Source of the DNA: Chiloscyllium plagiosum
Lineage: Eukaryota
DNA length: 42,862 nucleotides
Direction of reading: 5' to 3'
Assembly (NCBI RefSeq): GCF_004010195.1
Contig: NC_057719.1
Location: 3,720,152-3,763,013, forward strand
Part shown: in pieces, positions 18,011 through 41,220 of the stretch
How the letters are laid out: each line of letters opens with the position of its first letter
Numbering within the stretch: the first letter of the stretch is position 1
Made by a program: the position numbers and the translations under genes
The notes under the pieces: model-generated
Databases searched by the model: none
Seen by the model: the letters and a program-made list of their open reading frames with translations, nothing else
Told to the model about the DNA's origin: nothing

Positions 18011-19436
18011 TGTGCTCTCTCAGGGCAACTTTACTTTGCAATTTGAGAGGGAGAAGCTGGAATCAGATGTAACAGTATTACAGCTAAATAAAGGTAACTA
18101 TCGAGGCATGAGGGAGGAGGTGACCAGAATTGACTGGGAGAAGAGCCTAGCAGGAAAGAGAATGGAACAGCAATGGCAGGAGTTTCTGGGAGTGATTCGG
18201 CAGGAACATAAAAATTCATCCTGAGGGAAAAGAAGCATACTAAAGAGAGGACAAGGCAACCATGGCTGACCAGGGAGTCAGAGACAGTATAAAAGCAAAA
18301 GAGAAAGCATATCATACAGCGAAGGGTAATGGGAAGCCAGAGAATTGGGAAGCCCACAAAGATCAACAGAGGACAACTAAATAAGAAATGAGGATGGAGA
18401 AGACTAAGTATGAGGGTAAGCTAACCAGTAATATAAAAGAAGATTAAAGAAACTATTGCAGATATTTGAAAGGCAAAAAAGAGGCAAAAGTGGACCTTGA
18501 GCTGCCAGAAAATGAGGCTGGAGAAGTAGTAATGGGGAACAAAGAAATGGTGGAGGAACTGAATAAGCACTTTGTGTCAGTCTTAATTGTAGAAGACATG
18601 AGTAACATGCCAAAGATTCATGCAAATCAGGGGGCAGAAGTGAGTATAGTGACCATTCCCAAGTCTCAGATGGAAGAAAAACTGAAAGGTCTGAAGGATA
18701 AATCACCTGGACCAGATGGACTACATCCCAGAGTTCTAAAGGACATAGGTATACGTGGTCATCTTTCAGGAATCACTGAAGTCGGGGAGTGTCCAATCAT
18801 TAATGTAACCCTTCTGTTTAAGAAGGGAGTGCAAAAGGCAGGAAATTAGCCTGACCTCAGCCATTGGCAAGGTTTTGGAGTCCATGGTGAAGGATGAGAT
18901 TTCTGAATACTTAGAAGTGTATGGTAAAATAGGGGAAAGTCAGCATGGTTTCATTAAGGGGAGGTCAACAGGTTAGACCAAGGAGAGCCAGTGGATGTTA
19001 TCTACCTGGATGTCAAGAAGGCCTTTGACAAGGTGCCACACAGGAGGCTGCTGAGTAAGATAAGGGCCCATGGTGTTAGAGACAAGGTCCTAGCATGGAT
19101 AGAAGCTTGGCTGTTTGGCAGAAGGCAGAAAGTGGGGATAAAAGAGTCCTTCTCAGGTTGGAAGCTGGTGAGAAGTGGTCTTCCACAAGGGTTGGTGTTG
19201 GGGCCACAACTTTTCACTCTATACATTAATGATCGAGATGAAGGAACTGAGGGAATGCTGGCTAAGTTTGCAGATAATACAAAGATAGGAGGAAGGACAA
19301 GTAGCATTGAGGAGATGGGGAGGCTGCAGAAAGATTTAAGGAGAAAGTGAGGACTGCAGATGCTGGAGATCAGAGCTGAAAATGTGTTGCTGGAAAAGCG
19401 CAGCAGGTCAGGCAGCATCCAAGGAACAGGAGAATC

Positions 19437-19464
19437 GACGTTTCGGGCATAAGCCCTTCTTCAG
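19437..19464 (-). ncRNA. Minimal hammerhead ribozyme motif, intact core
   Basis: Minus strand reads CTGAAGA-A-GGGC-TTAT-GCCC-GAAA-CG-TC. Confidence 0.75.
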
Positions 19465-20469
19465 GAATGAGGAAAGTGTGTCCAGCAGGCTNNNNNNNNN
19501 NNNNNNNNNNNNNNNNNNNNNNNNNNNNNNNNNNNNNNNNNNNNNNNNNNNNNNNNNNNNNNNNNNNNNNNNNNNNNNNNNNNNNNNNNNNNNNNNNNNN
19601 NNNNNNNNNNNNNNNNNNNNNNNNNNNNNNNNNNNNNNNNNNNNNNNNNNNNNNNNNNNNNNNNNNNNNNNNNNNNNNNNNNNNNNNNNNNNNNNNNNNN
19701 NNNNNNNNNNNNNNNNNNNNNNNNNNNNNNNNNNNNNNNNNNNNNNNNNNNNNNNNNNNNNNNNNNNNNNNNNNNNNNNNNNNNNNNNNNNNNNNNNNNN
19801 NNNNNNNNNNNNNNNNNNNNNNNNNNNNNNNNNNNNNNNNNNNNNNNNNNNNNNNNNNNNNNNNNNNNNNNNNNNNNNNNNNNNNNNNNNNNNNNNNNNN
19901 NNNNNNNNNNNNNNNNNNNNNNNNNNNNNNNNNNNNTGCCTGTGGGAGTGGTAGAGTCAGCATCTTTGGTGACCTTTAAGCGGCAATTGGATAGGTACAT
20001 GGATGGGTGCTTAAGCTAGGACAAATGTTCGGCACAACATCGTGGGCCGAAGGGCCTGTTCTGTGCTGTATTGTTCTATGTTCTATGGTCTATGTTAACC
20101 CAACCTCCACTCCCGGCACCTTCCCCTGCAATCGCAAGAAATGCAAAACTTGCGCCCACACCTCCCCCCTTACTTCCCTCCAAGGCCCCAAGGGATTCTT
20201 CCATATCCGCCACAAATTCACCTGCACCTCCACACACATCATCTATTGCATCCGCTGCACCCGATGTGGCCTCCTCTATATTGGAGAGACAGGCCACAAG
20301 GACATTAGTGAACCAGATAGGTTTTTCGACGGTTGGAGGAAGAGCGCCTCATCTTCCGCCTAGGAACCCTCCAACCACAAGGGATGAACTCAGATTTCTC
20401 CAGTTTCCTCAATTCCCCTCCCCCCACCCTACCTTTTATCTTAGCCTGCTGGACAAACTTCCCTCATTC

Positions 20470-20497
20470 CTGAAGAAGGGCTTATGCCCGAAACGTT
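20470..20497 (+). ncRNA. Minimal hammerhead ribozyme motif
   Basis: CTGAAGA-A-GGGC-TTAT-GCCC-GAAA-CG-TT. Confidence 0.7.
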
Positions 20498-22379
20498 GAT
20501 TCTCCTGTTCCTTGGATGCTGCCTGACCTGCAGAAAGATTTAGACAGGTTTGGAGAGTGGGCAAAGAAGTGGCATGTGGAATACGTGTGAGAGTGTAGGA
20601 AGTTTGGTAGAAAGAATAGAGGCATAGATTATTTCCTAAATGGGGAGAAAATTCAGATTTTGGAAGTGCAAAAGGATTTAGGAGTCCTAGTCCAGGATTC
20701 TCTTAAGGTAAACTTGCAGGTTGAGGTGATAGTTAGGAAGACAAATGCAATGTTGGAATTTATTTTAGAATATAAAAGCAGAGATGTCCTTCTGAGGCAT
20801 TATAAGGCTCTGATTAGACCACATAGAGAATGCTGTGAGCAACTTTGGACCCCACACCTCAGGGAGGATGTACTGACCCTGGAGCGGGTCCAGAGGAGGT
20901 TCACCAGAATGGTCCCAGGAATGAAAGGCTTAACATAAGAGGAATGTTTGAGGACTCTGGGACTATATTCAAGGGAGTTTAGAAGGTTGAGGGGAGATCG
21001 AATTGAAGCTCACAGAATACTGAATGGCCTGAATAGATTGAATGTTGGAAAAATGTTTCCATTAGCAGGACTCAATGGCGCAGCCTTAGAGTAAAGAAAA
21101 TACCTTTTAGAATAGAGATAAGGAGAAACTTCTTCAACCAGAGAGTTGTGAATATAAGGAATTCATTGCCACAGAAGGCTGTGGAAGCCACATCATTTAG
21201 TATATTTAAACAGAAATATTTAGGTTCTCGATTGTTAAGGACATCAAAGGGAGAAGGTGGGAGAATGAGGTTGAGAAACTTATCAGCCATGATTGAATGG
21301 TGGAGGAGACTCACTGGGCCAAATGATCTAATTACTGCTGCTATGTCTTATGATCTTAACTCCCTCCTGACTCTAAAGCATTGTATAACCACCTCTGCTA
21401 GGTCTGTCCTGTTGGTGAGAAAGGACATATTCAGGGATGGTGATGGTGGGGTCTGAGACACTGTCTGTAAAATATGATTCCATAAGTGTGACCATGTCAG
21501 GCTGTTGCTTGACTAGTCTGTGAGGGAGCTTCCCAATGTTGGCACTAGCCCCCAGATGTTAGTGAGGAGGACTTTACAGGCTCGACAGGTCTGTTTCAGC
21601 CATTGGCCTTTCCTGTGCCTTGGTCCTTGCCAGGTGGTCTGTCCGGTTTCATTTCTTTGTTGAGACTTTGTAGTGATTGAAACAACTGAATGGCTTACAC
21701 GGCCATTTCAGAGGGCTGTTGAAAGTCACCACATTGCTGTGTGTATTCTCAATGCAAATATGGGACTTTATCTCCACAAGAACTGTGTAGTGGTCGCTTT
21801 TACTGATAATTTCATGGACAGATGCATCTGCAACTGGTATATTGGTAAGGATAAGACTAAGTTAAATGTTCCTTTTTGATGGATTCCTCACCGCCTGATG
21901 CTGTTCATACTATATATCATTCTTCTTCCTCTTAGTAGAGCATCCAACAGCAAGGAGGATATTTGGCCCATCTTGTCTGTGTTAACATTTTGAAAGGATT
22001 AACCAATTGTTTCTATTATCCCTGCTCTTTCCCTATTTTTTCATGTTCACTATGTATCCAATTCCACTTTGATCGATATGACTGAAACTTCTTACACTGC
22101 CCTTTCAGGCAACACATTCCAGATTACAACTGACTTAAAATAATTACTCACTTAAAACACACACAAAAAAAACTTCTCATCTCCTTACGTGTGTTTGTAT
22201 ACAACATGTCTGTGTTACTCTCTCTCTATCACTATCTCTTTGTGTGTGACTGTTTGCTTCTATCTTTTGCTTTTCATTTCTCTTTTACTCTATTCCCCTT
22301 TATATCTCTTCCTTTTTATGTTGGTCCCTCTATCTCTCTGCCTTTGCCTGTATCTCTCTCTCTTTCTAAGAATCCCCAC

Positions 22380-22475: not shown

Positions 22476-22789
22476 CTGCAAAATAAAAGAGAAAAGGGTG
22501 ATAAGGTTTCTTCAAGTACTGTTATCAACATTCTCTCATTATCAAAGCCAGTGCATCTCTCTATAAATACTCACCTTAAATGTGCCCCAATCGAGACCTC
22601 TGAATAACACAAAGGTATTTACAACAATCACACTGTAATGCTACAACAGTTCAGCCAGACACTGTTCTTAGGGCTAAAGATATCATAGAGTATGAGGAGA
22701 AAGTGGGAACAGGGGACGGAGCTGGATGATCAGCCATGATCATACTGAATGGTGGAGAAGGTTCAAAAGGGTGAATGTTCTACTCAAAT

Positions 22790-23087
22790 TGCTCAGAGAG
22801 CAGTTGAGAGTCAACCACATGGCTGTGGGTCTGGAGTCACAAGCAAGCCAGACCAGGTGAGGAGGGCGGATTTCCTTCCACAAGGACATTAATGAGCCAG
22901 ATAGGTTTTTTTCTAACAATCAAATGGCTCCATTATCATCAGTAGATACTTCATTTCAGATTTTTTGAACATTGAATTCAGATTCCCACCATCTGCTGTC
23001 GTGGGATGTGAATCCAGGCCCCCAGAACATTAGCTGAGTTCCTGGTTTAACATGCTTGCAATTATACCACCAGGCCATTGTAACCCC
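22790..23087 (-). mobile_element. tRNA-derived SINE, second family (related copies ~24390-24598, 27660-28050, 34360-34670, 41250-41365, 42590-42700)
   Basis: Recurrent blocks gagtcaaccacat..gtgggtctggagtcac and aaggacattagtgaaccagat, with a tRNA-like head. Confidence 0.7.
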
Positions 23088-23396: not shown

Positions 23397-23805
23397 CTGA
23401 AGCCATCTCCTCAACTCCTTTGAGTTCTACATGGATGTGACATGGTTGCAACAATTACTTGCAACACCCAACAATTAGGTGACTATGAACCATCATGCAA
23501 ACAGCTTCAAGGATTTCTCGATGGTTCCCAAGAGGTAGGAGGCTTAGGATACAATTCCCAAGCTTCCTGTATCCTTTTGGTGTGTCCTCCTCACACAGAC
23601 GCTAAAAGGCTGAGCATCAGCAAGAGATTTAGTTTGCAACAGCTAACAGATTGGGTTTGTACCCTTTAACGTTGGGAAGAATGACAGTTGATCACATTGA
23701 ACCGTGTAAATCCTGAGGGGAGTTGATAAGGTGAATGTTTCCTCCTGGGAGAACTCCATTTAGAGGACACAGTTGAAGAATAAGACATCTGCTTGTTAAC
23801 AAGGA

Positions 23806-24107
23806 AGTGAGGACTGCAGGTGCTGGAGGTCAGAATCAACAAGTGTGGTGCTGGAAAAGCACAGTGGGTCAGGCAGCATCCGAGGAGTAGGAAGGTCAAT
23901 GTTTCAGGCATAAACCCTTCATCAGGAATGTGTCCTCTAAATGCAGTTCTCCCAGGAGGAAATATCCACCCTATCAACTCCCCTCAGGATCTTACACATT
24001 TCAATGGGATCAACTGTCATTCCTGATGAAGAACTTATGCATGCAATGTCAATTCTCCTGCTCCTTGGATGCTGCCTGACCTGCTGCGCTTTTCCAGCAC
24101 CACTCTC
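23806..24107. mobile_element. Inverted pLTR pair enclosing an inverted copy of flanking DNA
   Basis: pLTR(-) ~23806-23928, spacer 23929-24022, pLTR(+) 24023-24107; TSD-like ttaac(a/t)agga at 23796-23805 and 24108-24117. Confidence 0.8.
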
Positions 24108-25203
24108 TTAACTAGGATACTGTAAACCTTATTAGTTTCACTCTGCTCCCATCCTGTCACTTTCAGTGTTTCTGTGGTCTAATGTTCTTGACACAGTCCT
24201 TTCTTATTCAACACCAAAACATTAACAATGTTTACTATGAATGAAAACTTTCAACTGATTATTCCCTGATTAGTTTTGGGATGCGGAAGTATTATTAGGG
24301 TAACTCCTCAATGGTGCCTTACTAAGACCAACTAACTCAGCAGAGACTAGGAGAAGACTGCAATTTCATTTAGACCCAGATCAGATTTACTTATCTAAAG
24401 GACGTTATTGATCCAGTTTAACCTTTATGACAATCCATGGCTCCATTTTCATCAGTAGATACTTAATTTCAGATTTTTTGAAAATTGATTTCTGATTCCA
24501 CCATCTGCTGTGGTGGGATTTGAACCCAGGCATCTAGAACGTTAGCTGAGTCCCTGGATTAACAGCCTTGCAATTATACCACCAAGCCATCGTAACCCTG
24601 AATGTGTATCCTGATATCCATCCTCCAATCTTTGAACTCTGAACAATACGTTTATGGCCATTTTGCTGAGACTATTTTTACTATCAGCATTTTTAAAAAT
24701 GTGTTTATTCAGTGAAAGTATCATTCCTCAAGATTATTCAGCTAGACTCTAATAATCCATTAATGTGGATTATTCAGTGGCACACCTGGCTATACCATTA
24801 GCCAGTAGACTGGTGGTGTTTAATCCTCTGGTACGACTCCCGTGTCACAGCACACTGGTGAGCTGCGATGAGGTGGGAGGTGTGCTGTGGAATTTTCTGG
24901 GAGTTGTGCTGCTTATCTGAGCATCGAGACAGTGTCTGCGCCTCTGATCTCCTCTGGAGCCTTTATGTCTACTATTGAAGGCAGTATCTCTGACAACAGG
25001 CGCCCTGATCGACTGGGCTAGCACAAGCCTCCAGAGCAGCATATGCGTAGACTTGAAAAGAAGGGGGTATGCTATGGAATTGTTTGACTCATTCAATTGT
25101 GCCTTGATACTAAAAAGATTGGGGACCACTACAGTAAACCAATGGGAGCCATTAAAAGGTAGAGGAAGGGATGATATAAATCAACACGCTTCTTAGGCAG
25201 AGG

Positions 25204-25421
25204 CGAAAATGTGTTGCTGGAAAAGCGCAGCAGGTCAGGCAGCATCCAAGGAACAGAAGAATCGACGTTTTGGGCATAAGCCCTTCTTCAGGAAACATGA
25301 AGAAGGGCTTATGCCTGAAAGGTTGATTCTCCTGTTCCTTGGATGCTGCATGATCTGCTGCGCTTTTTCAGCAACACATTTTCGGCTCTGATCTCCAGCA
25401 TCTGCGGTCCTCACTTTTTCC
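25204..25421. mobile_element. Palindromic PLE pLTR insertion
   Basis: Arms of ~85 bp joined at back-to-back hammerhead cores; 15-bp TSD cttcttaggcagagg (25189-25203, 25422-25436). Confidence 0.88.
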
Positions 25422-25857
25422 CTTCTTAGGCAGAGGGCCAATCTTCCCACGGCATAATCATACAGTCGCAGAGTCATACAGTACAGAAGAAGCCATTCAG
25501 CCCATCAAGTCTGCACTGACAAAAACTACTCTCAATCTGCACTAGACCTATTTTTCTTGGTACATAGCTTTGAATGTTATGACACTTCAAGTTCTCATCC
25601 GAGTATTTTTGGAAGGTTACGAGCTTTCCAGCCTCCAGTACCCCCCCTGGCTGTGCATTCCAGATTCCCACCACACTCTGGGTGAAAAAGATGTTTCCTC
25701 AAATCTCTTCTAAATCTCCTGCCATCACCTTAAAGTTATGACCCCTCCCCCCCCCCGCCCCCCCCCCTTCTTGTTATTAACCCCTCAACTAAAGGGAATT
25801 TCTATCCACCAGTCCATGCCTCTCATAATCATATTCATCCCACTAAGGTCCCCTCTC

Positions 25858-29634: not shown

Positions 29635-30262
29635 AGATGTTAGAAAGAAAAACTTGGGATGTGAATTTGACTTGGTTTGGTTGATGAATGTGTGAAATAT
29701 GAGATTTGACAGGTTTTGGAATGAATAGTCAGGGATCCAAGGAATAGATGTGAAATTAGGCATATATTAACTGTGAGGTAAAAGCAATGACTAAAGATGC
29801 TGGAAACCAGATTCTGGATTAGTGGTGCTAGAAGAGCACAGCAGTTCAGGCAGCATCCAAGGAGCTTTGAAATCGACGTTTCGGGCAAAAGCCCTCAATC
29901 AGGCCTTTATTCCTGATGAAGGGCTTTTGCCCAAAACGTTGATTTCAAAGCTCCTTGGATGCTGCCTGAACTGCTGTGCTCTTCCAGCACCACCAATCCA
30001 GAATATATTAACTGTGAAGTCATTAGATGTTGAGATGTGAGATTGGAAAACTGTTGAGATGTAAGGTCAGTAGATTTTGGGATGTGAGATAGGGAATGTA
30101 TTGGGATGCAAGTTCAGTAGTTGTTGGGATGTAAGATTGGGAAAACGTCGGGATGTGAGGTTGGGAAAAAGTTGGAATGTGAGGTCAATAGATATTAGGA
30201 TTTGAGATTGGAAAAATATTGGTAAGTGAAGTTAGATAGGTGTCACAATGTAAAGATGGGTA
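29635..30262 (+). repeat. Degenerate ~22-bp minisatellite interrupted by a pLTR palindrome
   Basis: Recurring ttgggatgtgagattgggaaaa-like units on both sides of 29777-30002. Confidence 0.7.
29777..30002. mobile_element. Palindromic PLE pLTR insertion
   Basis: Arms of ~90 bp, back-to-back hammerheads at 29875-29902 (-) and 29913-29940 (+); 15-bp TSD atatattaactgtga (29762-29776, 30003-30017). Confidence 0.88.
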
Positions 30263-32180: not shown

Positions 32181-32683
32181 CTGCAATGAAACAATCAGAG
32201 TCAAGATTCAAATAGCTTATTTTCAATATGTTGCTTTGTTGGAGGAAATGGGGACTGGCTCCCACCATATGTTCACTGGCAATCCAACTGGAACAACTGG
32301 GAACTGAATCACCAACCTAATATTCCTTAAACAGGTTTGGAATTGAGCACCTGCCTATCCTTGCAAGATCATTGATTTTAAGGGGACAAGGCTAAAGAAA
32401 TTGGAATGGACTCCCCAAGACCAGCACCTTCTACATCCTCAGTTAGGTTTCTTTTTCTATTCATGCATATGATGTGGGCATCACTGGCTGGACCAGCATT
32501 AATTGCCCATCATTCGTTTCCCTTGAGATAATGAGTTTTCCTGTTGAACTGCTGCAGTCATTCTACTATAGGCAAATACAGACTGCCATTAGGGATGGAG
32601 ACCCAGGACTTTGACTCAGTGACACCAGAAGAACTGCAATATATTGGGACGTGTATCTCACCATGCGCACTTGATCAAAGCAC

Positions 32684-32880
32684 ACTTTGGAGATGCCAGT
32701 GTTGGACTGGGGTGTACAAAGTTAAAAATCACACAACACCAGGTTATAGTCCAACAGGTTTAATTGGAAGCACACTAGCTTTCGGAGCGACGCTCCTGAT
32801 GAAGGAGCGTCGCTCCGAAAGCTAGTGTGCTTCCAACTAAATCTGTTGGACTATAACCTGGTGTTGTGTGATTTTTAACT
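32684..32880. mobile_element. Palindromic PLE pLTR insertion, third family
   Basis: Near-perfect ~80-bp arms with CTGATGA at the apex; 13-bp TSD ttgatcaaagcac (32671-32683, 32881-32893). Confidence 0.85.
32796..32824 (+). ncRNA. Minimal hammerhead ribozyme motif, AGCT stem-III variant
   Basis: CTGATGA-A-GGAGC-GTC-GCTCC-GAAA-GC-TA. Confidence 0.72.
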
Positions 32881-33479
32881 TTGATCAAAGCACCACCTAG
32901 TGGTCTGGGCCAAGGTGGAAACAAATATTTCCCTAAGGATATGGGGGACAGATGAAAGCCACAATATATTCAGGTAGTAGGACTGCAAATTAAATATGTT
33001 TGTGAGGCTCCTGCGTACGTTAACAGTCATTTTAATCTTCATATAAAATGATAAACTCAGAGTTGCTTAGAATAGTATTTTCTGGGCTCAACAAGGGTCT
33101 AAGTTGCTATGGATCTGGTGTTATGCATAATTAACAATGTATTATGTATTGTTAGGAATCTCATATAAAGGGAATTTCCCACGAAGAGAGATCATAATTG
33201 CAAAAACTTTCACACTCAATTTCAAAATAATACACTTAATTCCAATAAAATTAAATAATCTAAATTAAATAAATCCAATTAGTTCGACAGAAGGAATGAA
33301 TTAGGTAGTGTCAGTTGGGAAATCAGATTAAAAGGTAGAAAGACATAACCAAAAATGTTAATAAACATACAAATTTTCTATGAATACATATTTCACTAAG
33401 CAATAAAAACTCTGTCACAAAAGTGATCATCTGTGGTTGCCAGAAGTGGTCAAAGATATATTAGATTCTAAAAGGAGTT

Positions 33480-34080: not shown

Positions 34081-34597
34081 TGGACGCAGACCAGATCAGT
34101 AGCAATCTAGCCTGCAGGTGGTTCTGGAAATGGCCTGTTTCCACACTGTAGGGAATCTAATCTAATCAAAATTATTATTCTAAGCACCTGTCACATGCCA
34201 TGAGCCCATTTTTCAAACTAATGTTGTCAATCTGATTTTGCCATTTTATATGAAATCCCCTGTAATTATTGAATTACCTTTAACTCCTCTTGCATATTGA
34301 ATCATACTCTAAGTAACTGTATAGCTACTTCCACCAGTGTATCTTTAAAAGGTGTTCATTCACAGGAATTAGGCTTCACTAGCTAGGCTAGTATTTCATA
34401 TCCATCTCTAATTGCTCAGGAGGCAGTTAAAACTCAACCACATTGTTGTGGGTCTGGAGTAACATGCAGTCCAGTTCACATTAGGATGGCAGTTTCCGTC
34501 CAGAAAGGGCATTAGTGAACCAGATGGTGTTCTCCAACAATCAACAATGGATTCATGTCATCATTAGATTCTTAATTGCCAATTCTTATTGAATTCA

Positions 34598-35102
34598 AAT
34601 TCCACTAACTGCTATGGCAAGATTCGAACTTGGATCCCCAGAACATTTATCTGGGTCACTGGATTGATAGAAGGAAGTGAGGCCCGCAGATACCGGAAAT
34701 TCAAGGGTCGAATTGTAAATGGGAAGGCATTAGCCTAGTAGTATTATTGCTAGACTATTAATTCAGAGAGTTGAAAAGGGTGGCACTAGAAAAGCACAGC
34801 AGATCAGGCAGCATCCGAGGAGCAGGAGAATCGACGTTTTGGGCATAAGCTCTTCATCAGGAATGTCGATTCTTCTGCTCCTCGGATGCTGCCTGACCTG
34901 CTGTGCTTTTCTAGTGCCACCCTTTTCAACTCTCTGAATTAATAGTCCAGCAATAATACTACTAGGCTAATGCCTTCCCATTTACAATTCGACCCTTGAA
35001 TTTCCGGTATCTGCGGGCCTCACTTCCTTCTATCAATCCAGTGACCCAGATAAATGTTCTGGGGATCCAAGTTCGAATCTTGCCATAGCAGTTAGTGGAA
35101 TT
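34598..35102. repeat. 238-bp near-perfect inverted repeat with a hammerhead in the 29-nt loop
   Basis: 34598-34835 is the reverse complement of 34865-35102 with about 3 mismatches by eye. Confidence 0.92.
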
Positions 35103-35716
35103 AAAAGTCCAGCAATAATACTACTAGGCTAATGCCTTCCCATTTACAATTACAAACACAGGCCATTCAACCCAAAAGGCCTATGTTGGTATTAGGTGCA
35201 TTTTATGTGAGCCTCCTCCAACTTTACTTCATCTCAAACTATCAGCATGTCCCTCTATTCTTTTCTCTTGCATGTATCTATCTGGCCTCCCCTTAAATAC
35301 CTCTGGCTATTTGCAACGATGGCTTCACATGGTGATGAGTTGCTAATGACACTTCAGGTAAAGATATCTCTTTTAAATTTTTGATTGGATTTATTGGTGA
35401 TTATCTTACATTTATGACTCTGAGCTTTTGACTCTCCTAGATATGAAAACGCCTTCTCTTCCTCTACCCCATCAAACTCCTCCATAATTTTAAGGATTTC
35501 TATTAGTCTTTAGTCTCTCTGCTCTAGACAAATGAAATATTCTTCTATGATAATGTAGTAAAAAAATGACTACACATCAATATATTAATATATGCATTTC
35601 TCCTATCATTGTGTCTTCACACACTCCATTATCCCACAACACAATGGATCACAAACCCTTGATTTCTCAATCCATAAACAGATTGAGGTAGTTCTGCTCT
35701 GATATACTGCTCTTAC

Positions 35717-39577: not shown

Positions 39578-39686
39578 ATTGTGAAGAAAAATCAGAGTTA
39601 ACGTTTCGGGTCCGGTGACCCTTCCTCAGAACTGATGGTAACTGGGAAAGGTGGGTTTTCATGCAGAAGATAGGGTGGCGGGGGGG

Positions 39687-39726
<40 letters not shown>

Positions 39727-41220
39727 AGTCTGCTTTGCCATTCAGTAATGGCTGAAAAACAGTTGGACAAACAAAGGAGTGGACAACGATCTGGCCGGGA
39801 GGATGAATAGCTGTTAATGGAGACTGTCAGTGACTAACAAAGGGTTGTGCATAACTATGTGATTACAAGGCCTGGTGTATAGTGGTGTATAGTGGTGGCA
39901 GGGGTGATCGATTGGCTCGGACATAGGAGAGTTCAAGCTCTAAAGTTGTTGAAATCAATATTAAGTCCCAAAAGCTAAAGGGTCCCCAAGCGGAACACCA
40001 GGTATTGTTCTTCCAGCTGACACTGAGCTTTGCTGGAGCACTGAGGCAGAGATATTGGCCGGGGTCAGGGTGGTGTGTTGTGGCACGTGACTGGAAACTC
40101 AGCATCATTTTCGCAGGCAGAATGTGATGTTCCAGTGTAGAGGAGATCACATTGTGAGCAGTGAATGCAGTAGACTATATAGTGTGAATGCAGGTAAAGC
40201 ATCACTTCACCTGAAAAGTATATTTGGGCCCTTGAGGAGGGAGGAGGTAAATGGGCAAGTGTTACGCCTTCGGTGATTGCAGGGGAAGGTGTCGTGGGGA
40301 TGTGGGGGCTGTTGGGAGTGAAGGGAATAGTCCCTACAGAAGGCAGACAAGGGAGGAGAGGGGAATGTGTGTCTGGTAGTGGCATCTTTTTGGAGGTAGC
40401 GGAAATGGCAACTAATGATTTTCTGGATGTGGATGCTTGGTGGGATGGTAGATAAGGACAAGGGGAAGAGAGGGGCTGAGGCCGAAGTTCCAGAGCTGGA
40501 GCAAACAGTTGGGATCTAGTCTGCTGCATTCACTGCTCACAATGTGATCTCCTCTATATTGGGGAAACAAAGCGTCGAACACCTCCATTCTGGCTGCAAA
40601 AATTACACTGAGTTCCCAGTCGCCTGCCACTTCAAAACACCACCCTGATCCCTGGTCAATATCTCTGTCTCAGGCTTGCTGCAGTGCTCCAGTTTAGCTT
40701 AGCATAAGCTGGAAGAACACCTCATTTTCTGGTTGGAGACCCTGCAGCCTTCGGGACTTAACATTGATTTCAATAACTTTCGAGGTTGAACTGTCAACTG
40801 TCCTAGCCAACTGATCCCACCCTCCCACCCCCAACCACCACCACTAACACACACCAGGCCTTGTAATCACATAGTTACACACAACCCATAGTTAGTCACT
40901 AACAGTCCCCATTAACAGTTATTCACCCTGGCTACCTTTGCCTGCCCAACTGTTTTTCTCTCTCTTTGAGCTCTATCCCCACTTACTGTTTACTCCTTAT
41001 TAATCCCACCACCACCACCCCCCACCCCCACCAGCCCCCAGCTTCTATCTAAAACCCACATTTTCCGAGCAACCATCAATTCAGAGGAATGGTCAACAGA
41101 CCTGAAACTCTATTAACTCTGATTCTCTTCACAGAAGCTGCCAGACCCGCAGTGCTTTTCCAGCAATATTTGGTTGTGTTTCTAATTTACAGCATCCACA
41201 GCTCTTTCGGTTTTCATTTA
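39578..41220. mobile_element. Two head-to-head Penelope-like 3' fragments (minus ~39578-40460; plus ~40520-41220)
   Basis: GIY-YIG relics IVYCIHCSQCDLLYTG(T) on minus and CIHCSQCDLLYIGET on plus; pLTRs at both outer ends. Confidence 0.82.
39600..39629 (-). ncRNA. Minimal hammerhead ribozyme motif, fourth family
   Basis: agtt-CTGAGGA-A-GGGTC-ACCG-GACCC-GAAA-CG-TT-aact; the flanks AGTT/AACT can form a 4-bp stem I. Confidence 0.75.

Follow-up and report, generated by a model that had tools for sequence, protein, structure and literature searches.

Insertions of Penelope-like elements (PLEs) are known for inverted pLTRs, an optional 30-40-bp tail, palindromes at their junctions, a proposed self-priming step and the capture of host DNA (PMC3846280, PMC8557442). 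The locus described here lies in a window (the whole 42,862-nt stretch of DNA that was analysed) and resembles the reported insertions of EN+ PLEs in its head-to-head inverted pLTR ends, one-sided tail, short TSD, inverted-junction palindromes and host DNA captured between the pLTRs. However, in the sections of those two reports covered here, the host DNA between the pLTRs was not copied in inverted form from the insertion's flanks; at this locus, by contrast, copies of both flanks are contained in the arms, and the pLTR body is separated from its tail. In vitro, PLE reverse transcription starts at two adjacent sites, and both target strands are cut and extended (PMC11167929). The PLE tail equals the stretch between these two start sites. 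Both priming junctions, the long end on one strand and the short end on the other, stand side by side here, as the two-strand, two-start result predicts.

Fold-back copies of the target site are already known for L1 and R2. Somatic L1 fold-back inversions of 52-220 bp were found alone in three cases and with twin priming in one, about 0.3-0.4% (PMC10191854). Like the present locus, they are inverted duplications next to the target, attributed to DNA polymerases during resolution; in contrast, they involve one flank only and are rare, whereas here both flanks are copied, apparently at different times. At the snap-back 5' junctions of R2, the 3' end of the cDNA primes on itself or on nearby target before joining (PMC11371274), but these junctions are experimental, concern one site and come without a twin-primed inverted pair or later extension. 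In short-range replication switching and quasi-palindrome conversion (PMC7954356), and in DUP-TRP/INV-DUP rearrangements (PMC11293582), as proposed here, synthesis moves onto the opposite strand close to an inverted repeat, returns through microhomology and yields a near-perfect inverted repeat; inverted repeats produced by short-range switches with four switch points are on record (PMC7954356). Unlike in those cases, the seed repeat here is a retroelement stump and the tract is 113-238 bp. Finally, the minimal hammerheads of metazoan PLEs, for which opposite-strand pairs 100-700 bp apart have been noted, have the same extra nucleotide before stem II, no helix III loop and palindromic 15.2-16.2 positions (PMC4209133); here, however, a core G is changed, stem II is mismatched, and of the motif arm 2 retains no more than the half that begins at the cleavage triplet. 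A search of the open literature, with subscription papers and supplements outside its scope, found no description of PLE insertions with inverted copies of their own flanks, and the section covered of a bioRxiv paper on retrozymes holds nothing on flanks or inverted insertions. Such copies are thus apparently undescribed for PLEs in that literature, which calls the resolution of PLE insertions undefined; the locus is a footprint of that step.

The locus is a palindrome of 505 bases (Table 1). Its 238-bp arms, 34598-34835 and 34865-35102, differ only at 34752/34948, 34803/34897 and 34826/34874, and they enclose a 29-nt loop (34836-34864) containing a degraded minimal hammerhead. On the + strand, the left half runs from the left flank through the left TSD copy, the 40-nt tail and 44 nt of inverted right flank to the inverted right TSD copy, the pLTR body, which starts at the family's short 3' end, and the hammerhead remnant. 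The right half is the mirror from the GTC triplet back to 34598; GAATT, the remaining letters of the right TSD and then the true right flank follow. This order of parts, with arms of 238 bp, about three mismatches and a ribozyme loop, is that of the initial annotation, in which two positions need adjustment. The pLTR does resume after the inverted flank, but near 34770 rather than at 34764, since a TSD copy precedes it; and the mirrored left flank, put at ~70 bp up to 35102, measures 73 bp (35030-35102).

Table 1. Parts of the palindromic insertion and its surroundings (window coordinates)
Feature	Position	Strand	Basis or remark
SINE-like repeat body (insertion target)	34406..34670	-	72% identity to copy 22783-23080 across rebuilt empty site
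Source of mirrored left flank, last 73 bp of SINE body	34598-34670		
Left TSD copy, 8-15 bp	34656..34670	+	12/15 match to 34931-34945
pLTR tail, 40 nt, begins at the family's long 3' end	34671..34710	-	alignment to 5 tails
Inverted right-flank copy (44 nt) and right TSD copy (15 nt)	34711..34769	-	43/44 identical to 35108-35151
pLTR body from the family's short 3' end	34770..34835	-	family alignment
Degraded minimal hammerhead motif	34833..34864	-	family motif; core and stem II changes
Arm 2, inner part	34865..34989	+	mirror of 34711-34835, carries all 3 mismatches
Arm 2, outer part: mirrored tail, left TSD, further 58 bp of left flank	34990..35102	+	
Microhomology GAATT, 5 nt, mirrored left flank to right TSD	35098..35102	+	
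Remainder of right TSD, then true right flank (SINE head followed by unique DNA)	35103..35151	+	

A 54-nt block occurs three times, at 34711-34764 (inverted), 34936-34989 and 35098-35151; the true right-flank stretch 35103..35151 is copied twice within the insertion. The inner part of arm 2 holds pLTR from the GTC triplet, the TSD copy 34931-34945 and the right-flank copy 34946-34989. Its outer part is complementary to 34598-34710 at 113 of 113 positions. That all three mismatches fall in the inner 125 bp (P 0.14 by chance) would agree with an inner hairpin of greater age. All three are transitions; the letter that departs from the family is on arm 1 at 34803 and on arm 2 at 34874. The tail (34671-34710) aligns with those of the copies at 19339, 23267, 23800, 25298 and 11073, and its junction with the inverted right flank shows microhomology of at most 2 nt.

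Joining 34670 to 35108 restores a single SINE-like repeat, which we take to be HE1-like. Three in-window SINE paralogues reach the site: two align gap-free across the rebuilt joint, and the third extends 5 nt past it, so that the empty site proposed in the initial annotation is correct. The flank-like segments are absent from all 11 aligned in-window copies of the element family, which makes them local host (SINE) DNA and not element consensus, as the first reading of the sequence had it; what it called the right flank consists mostly of the head of the SINE whose body makes up the left flank. The inverted right-flank copy brings with it a second copy of the TSD, 34755-34769 and 34931-34945 being alike to 34656-34670 at 12 of 15 letters. 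The outer letters are possibly derived from the pLTR, hence the range of 8-15 bp for TSD length. We rejected TSD mismatches as a clock, since only 8 of the 15 letters are surely TSD. Six of the seven other family insertions examined in the window have TSDs of 11-16 bp, and the seventh has 5 bp.

Its hammerhead motif, its tail and the inverted pairs with short TSDs identify the element as a PLE pLTR insertion within a SINE, in line with the initial annotation. In the in-window family alignment (11 copies), some copies end at a long 3' end and others at a short one, and the tail and body of this insertion begin at these two ends used by other copies. Three letters present on both inner arms are absent in all 10 in-window copies that reach them. 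The family motif, described as in PMC4209133, has exactly three exact matches in the window against none in 100 shuffles. At the locus, GAAA has become AAAA at 34840 and stem II is mismatched at 34851, so that the core (CUGANGA, GAAA, NUH) and stem II are no longer intact. The G of GAAA is essential for hammerhead activity, and the ribozyme is likely dead, to judge by its sequence. The region 34833-34864 forms no stable fold (z 0.32). An Rfam search of the window gave no hits at the gathering score, and ARAGORN found no genes in it. Upstream of another family pLTR, the frame 20100-20360 contains a YIG motif and a weak match to PF01541 (GIY-YIG; E 0.095), at 13.5 bits below the cut-off of 22.6. 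A 20-nt pLTR motif was found at no locus in viral contigs; its 17 loci in metagenome contigs were discarded, all being chance matches of at most 32 aligned letters.

The relative age of the parts was judged against organism C, a related species represented by one run (X9) at depth 4-6. In its four long pieces, 62 of 1365 letters are not those of the window (~4.5%). Its contig 27 is unbroken over 34423-34768, through left flank, tail and inverted right flank, with 15 other letters and 2 gaps. By the letters of this contig, the left half, including the inverted right-flank copy, is shown to predate the split from organism C. Contig 32 of the same run, 1115 letters long, aligns only from 35098, with its letter 534, and does not raise the depth at 34700 and 34710. 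Had a mirrored left flank been present, the alignment would have been longer, so its start at 35098 suggests a right half that lacks one, although a C-specific change is possible. At 34666, 34683, 34700 and 34710, the window carries on both arms a letter other than that of organism C; at 34666 all three SINE paralogues agree with organism C, and at 34683 four of five pLTR tails do. With sites treated as independent, the differences between the arms (3/238, and 0/113 in the outer part) are fewer than those between the species (62/1365; P 0.005 each). Arms so alike argue against a copy older than the split, unless they were converted, and the mirrored left flank is likely younger than the split.

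We therefore favor an origin in two steps, with a probability of roughly 0.58: an older inverted copy of the right flank, and then a younger switch, probably by the host at the DNA level, that mirrored the left flank. In the first step, both target strands would have been primed, one at the long 3' end (left TSD and tail), the other at the short 3' end (right TSD and pLTR body). Together with 44 nt of flank, the junction on the right would then have ended up in inverted orientation behind the tail, either through cDNA snap-back and hairpin opening while the insertion was sealed or through a later switch between the inverted arms. On this view, the inverted series of right flank, TSD and pLTR body is most readily understood as the element's usual second junction in reverse orientation rather than as a free jump to unrelated DNA. 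In the second step, in the lineage of organism A, a growing strand would have folded back on arm 1 and copied leftwards through the tail, the TSD and 58 bp of left flank, returning to the right TSD via GAATT and leaving 44 nt of right flank duplicated. This may have extended a pre-existing 125-bp hairpin, or the fold-back may have occurred at the hammerhead remnant, also deleting sequence still present in organism C.

Microhomology of at least 5 nt, such as the GAATT return, has a chance of 0.0057 in random local pairs. The mirror rejoins the chromosome through this microhomology, as DNA template switches do. Two features of a short-range template switch are present, a reverse-complement copy (113-238 bp) and microhomology at the return. 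The loop-side fold-back point, 34864, shows only 1 nt of exact microhomology. (This value, and those of 2 nt at the first junction of the second locus and 6 nt at 24017-24022 given below, were read by eye.) Folding of the 3' end before the mirror revealed no stable snap-back hairpin (z +1.09 and +1.25), so that structure-guided priming at the ribozyme is unsupported. The locus is likely a functionless scar.

Four of 24 sequencing runs (X1, X5, X9 and X15), all as contigs, were compared with the window. X1, from the same species, differs from the window at several places but has 0 differences from it in its contigs 34619-34740 and 35052-35127, and it holds three of the five junctions: left-flank/tail, tail/right-flank and mirror/right-flank. 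The first is bridged by X1 contig 4 and X9 contig 27. The GAATT return is covered by X1 contig 7, with 0 differences. The short sides in X1 are 30 letters at the tail/right-flank junction and 25-30 at the mirror/right-flank junction, just below the 31-letter rule. Among the contigs listed, none joins 34769, 34864 or both arms. The anatomy of the palindrome is confirmed in the window and the junctions exist; both arms probably lie on a single molecule.

One alternative, unlikely but live, is that the species carries an allele with an inversion, or with a single arm, broken at AATTC (34598) and GAATT (35098), and that the window was merged from the inverted and uninverted haplotypes through their shared inner 125 bp, either by the assembler or by a real crossover. 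The window contains three N gaps and hence comes from a scaffolded assembly. The X1 tail contig has single-copy depth (12 against 10.5-13.2), where two arms predict double, but fragments that form hairpins are hard to sequence, which could halve depth (PMC4057610). X1 contig 7 continues past a branch predicted at 35073 and stops at 35127, not at the predicted 35135; an internal TSD copy with the letter of 35105 could account for this stop, as could an unmirrored allele with that letter. One arm-specific variant near 34618 or a branch to a SINE paralogue could also explain contig 7. X1 contig 3 leaves the window at 34577 with nine loose letters, also as a merge might predict. On the other hand, X1 ends at 34740 and 35122 are exact break points of the window's k=31 graph, contig 8 starting at 35122 as predicted by the repeat that ends at 35151, and the second breakpoint of the supposed inversion is in no contig. 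X15 (same species) and X5 have zero depth on the tail (34666-34710), and their right-flank contigs begin at 35100 and 35102 without a break at 35122. The zero depth of X15 fits a merge; we rejected the holes and contig starts of the two runs as evidence for an empty allele, since a lack of coverage proves nothing and 11% of X5 is unread.

Somewhat less probable still is a palindrome that as a whole predates the split from organism C, its arms evened out by gene conversion and the right half of organism C changed later. Organism C does hold the left half, conversion would place lineage-specific letters on both arms, and the 533 upstream letters of its contig 32 are unexplained under any model. 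But this history requires a second change in organism C that ends exactly at 35098, and a near-identical second arm would break contig 27 at 34627 and 34740, whereas the contig is unbroken over 34598-34768.

We give about the same low credence to the origin put forward in the initial annotation, in which a single insertion event, with the PLE reverse transcriptase jumping back and forth between element RNA and target DNA, produced the whole palindrome. In its favor, the components match element ends and target flanks exactly, another inverted pair in the window (see below) has a flank copy between its arms, PLEs have been proposed to self-prime and to jump between templates (PMC3846280), and the ends of R2 cDNA snap back onto the cDNA itself or onto target DNA close by (PMC11371274). 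A single event nevertheless fits poorly with the 35098 start in organism C and with arms that differ at 3/238: the two flank copies appear to differ in age, and one event would need later conversion plus a change in organism C. Copying at the time of insertion, of the L1 or R2 type, would likewise fail for the mirrored left flank, which appears younger, but may apply to the right-flank copy and to 23929-24022. A role for the ribozyme cut at GTC, near which the initial annotation saw the mirror start, is not supported either; the start lies 3 nt 5' of the predicted cut, where a cleaved RNA would give no template. Cut RNA was rejected as its cause, the joints of paralogue contigs scattering over 34810-34843. 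Paralogue contigs leave the window at 34789 and 34911, 184-278 per run. In the five other inverted pairs, the sense arm begins upstream of the hammerhead core. Polymerases are not assignable from sequence, and for L1 fold-backs DNA polymerases have been held responsible (PMC10191854); the older right-flank copy may or may not be the work of the element's reverse transcriptase.

A pure fold-back artefact of a read or library, which a near-perfect palindrome, a gapped assembly and unverified inner junctions might suggest, is very unlikely and already largely refuted by the three junctions found without differences in X1, a run that differs from the window elsewhere, by the left half in another species, and by the three transitions that separate the arms, with family-deviant letters on both.

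The window holds six inverted pLTR pairs. Four of the other five have TSDs of 13-15 bp; the fifth (23800/24018) has only a 5-bp candidate. In this second pair (23679-24118), the stretch 23929-24022 is an inverted copy, 93 bp long and 91.5% identical, of the pair's own left flank (23679-23771). It sits between the arms, with microhomologies of 2 nt and 6 nt. Flank capture is seen in two of six pairs in the window, or one of five without the pair chosen for study. It is possible, though we hold it only tentatively and think it rather doubtful, that twin-primed PLE insertions here routinely pull host DNA, including their own flanks in inverted form, into the joint of the cDNA ends, and that the leftover hairpins grow by later fold-backs. 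If so, capture would affect tens of percent of inverted pairs, against 0.3% for L1, and PLE stumps would be a genome-wide source of host-sequence palindromes. Were capture as frequent as 2/6, the sealing step could be tested by a genome-wide count, which would also reveal a source of palindromes that short-read assemblies mishandle.

The inverted pair at 19324-20541, with a 15-bp TSD, surrounds an N gap and contains the end of a PLE-like ORF (YIG, 20100-20360). Beside the gap, 156 bp are 98% identical to 212-367 of the window, 19.7 kb away; a capture, a young LINE copy and a mis-join are candidate readings of this match. Plain inverted pLTR pairs with 15-bp TSDs and no flank copy lie at 25189-25436, with the tail on the right arm only, and at 29762-30020, with the tail on the left arm only. 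The pair at 32671-32894 belongs to a different hammerhead-bearing pLTR family, is centred in stem II and has a TSD of 13-14 bp. Outside the six pLTR pairs, an older inverted pair (~600 bp, 71% identity) lies at 39580-41133. A degenerate tandem repeat with units of ~47/24 bp (30013-30235) directly follows the pair at 29811.
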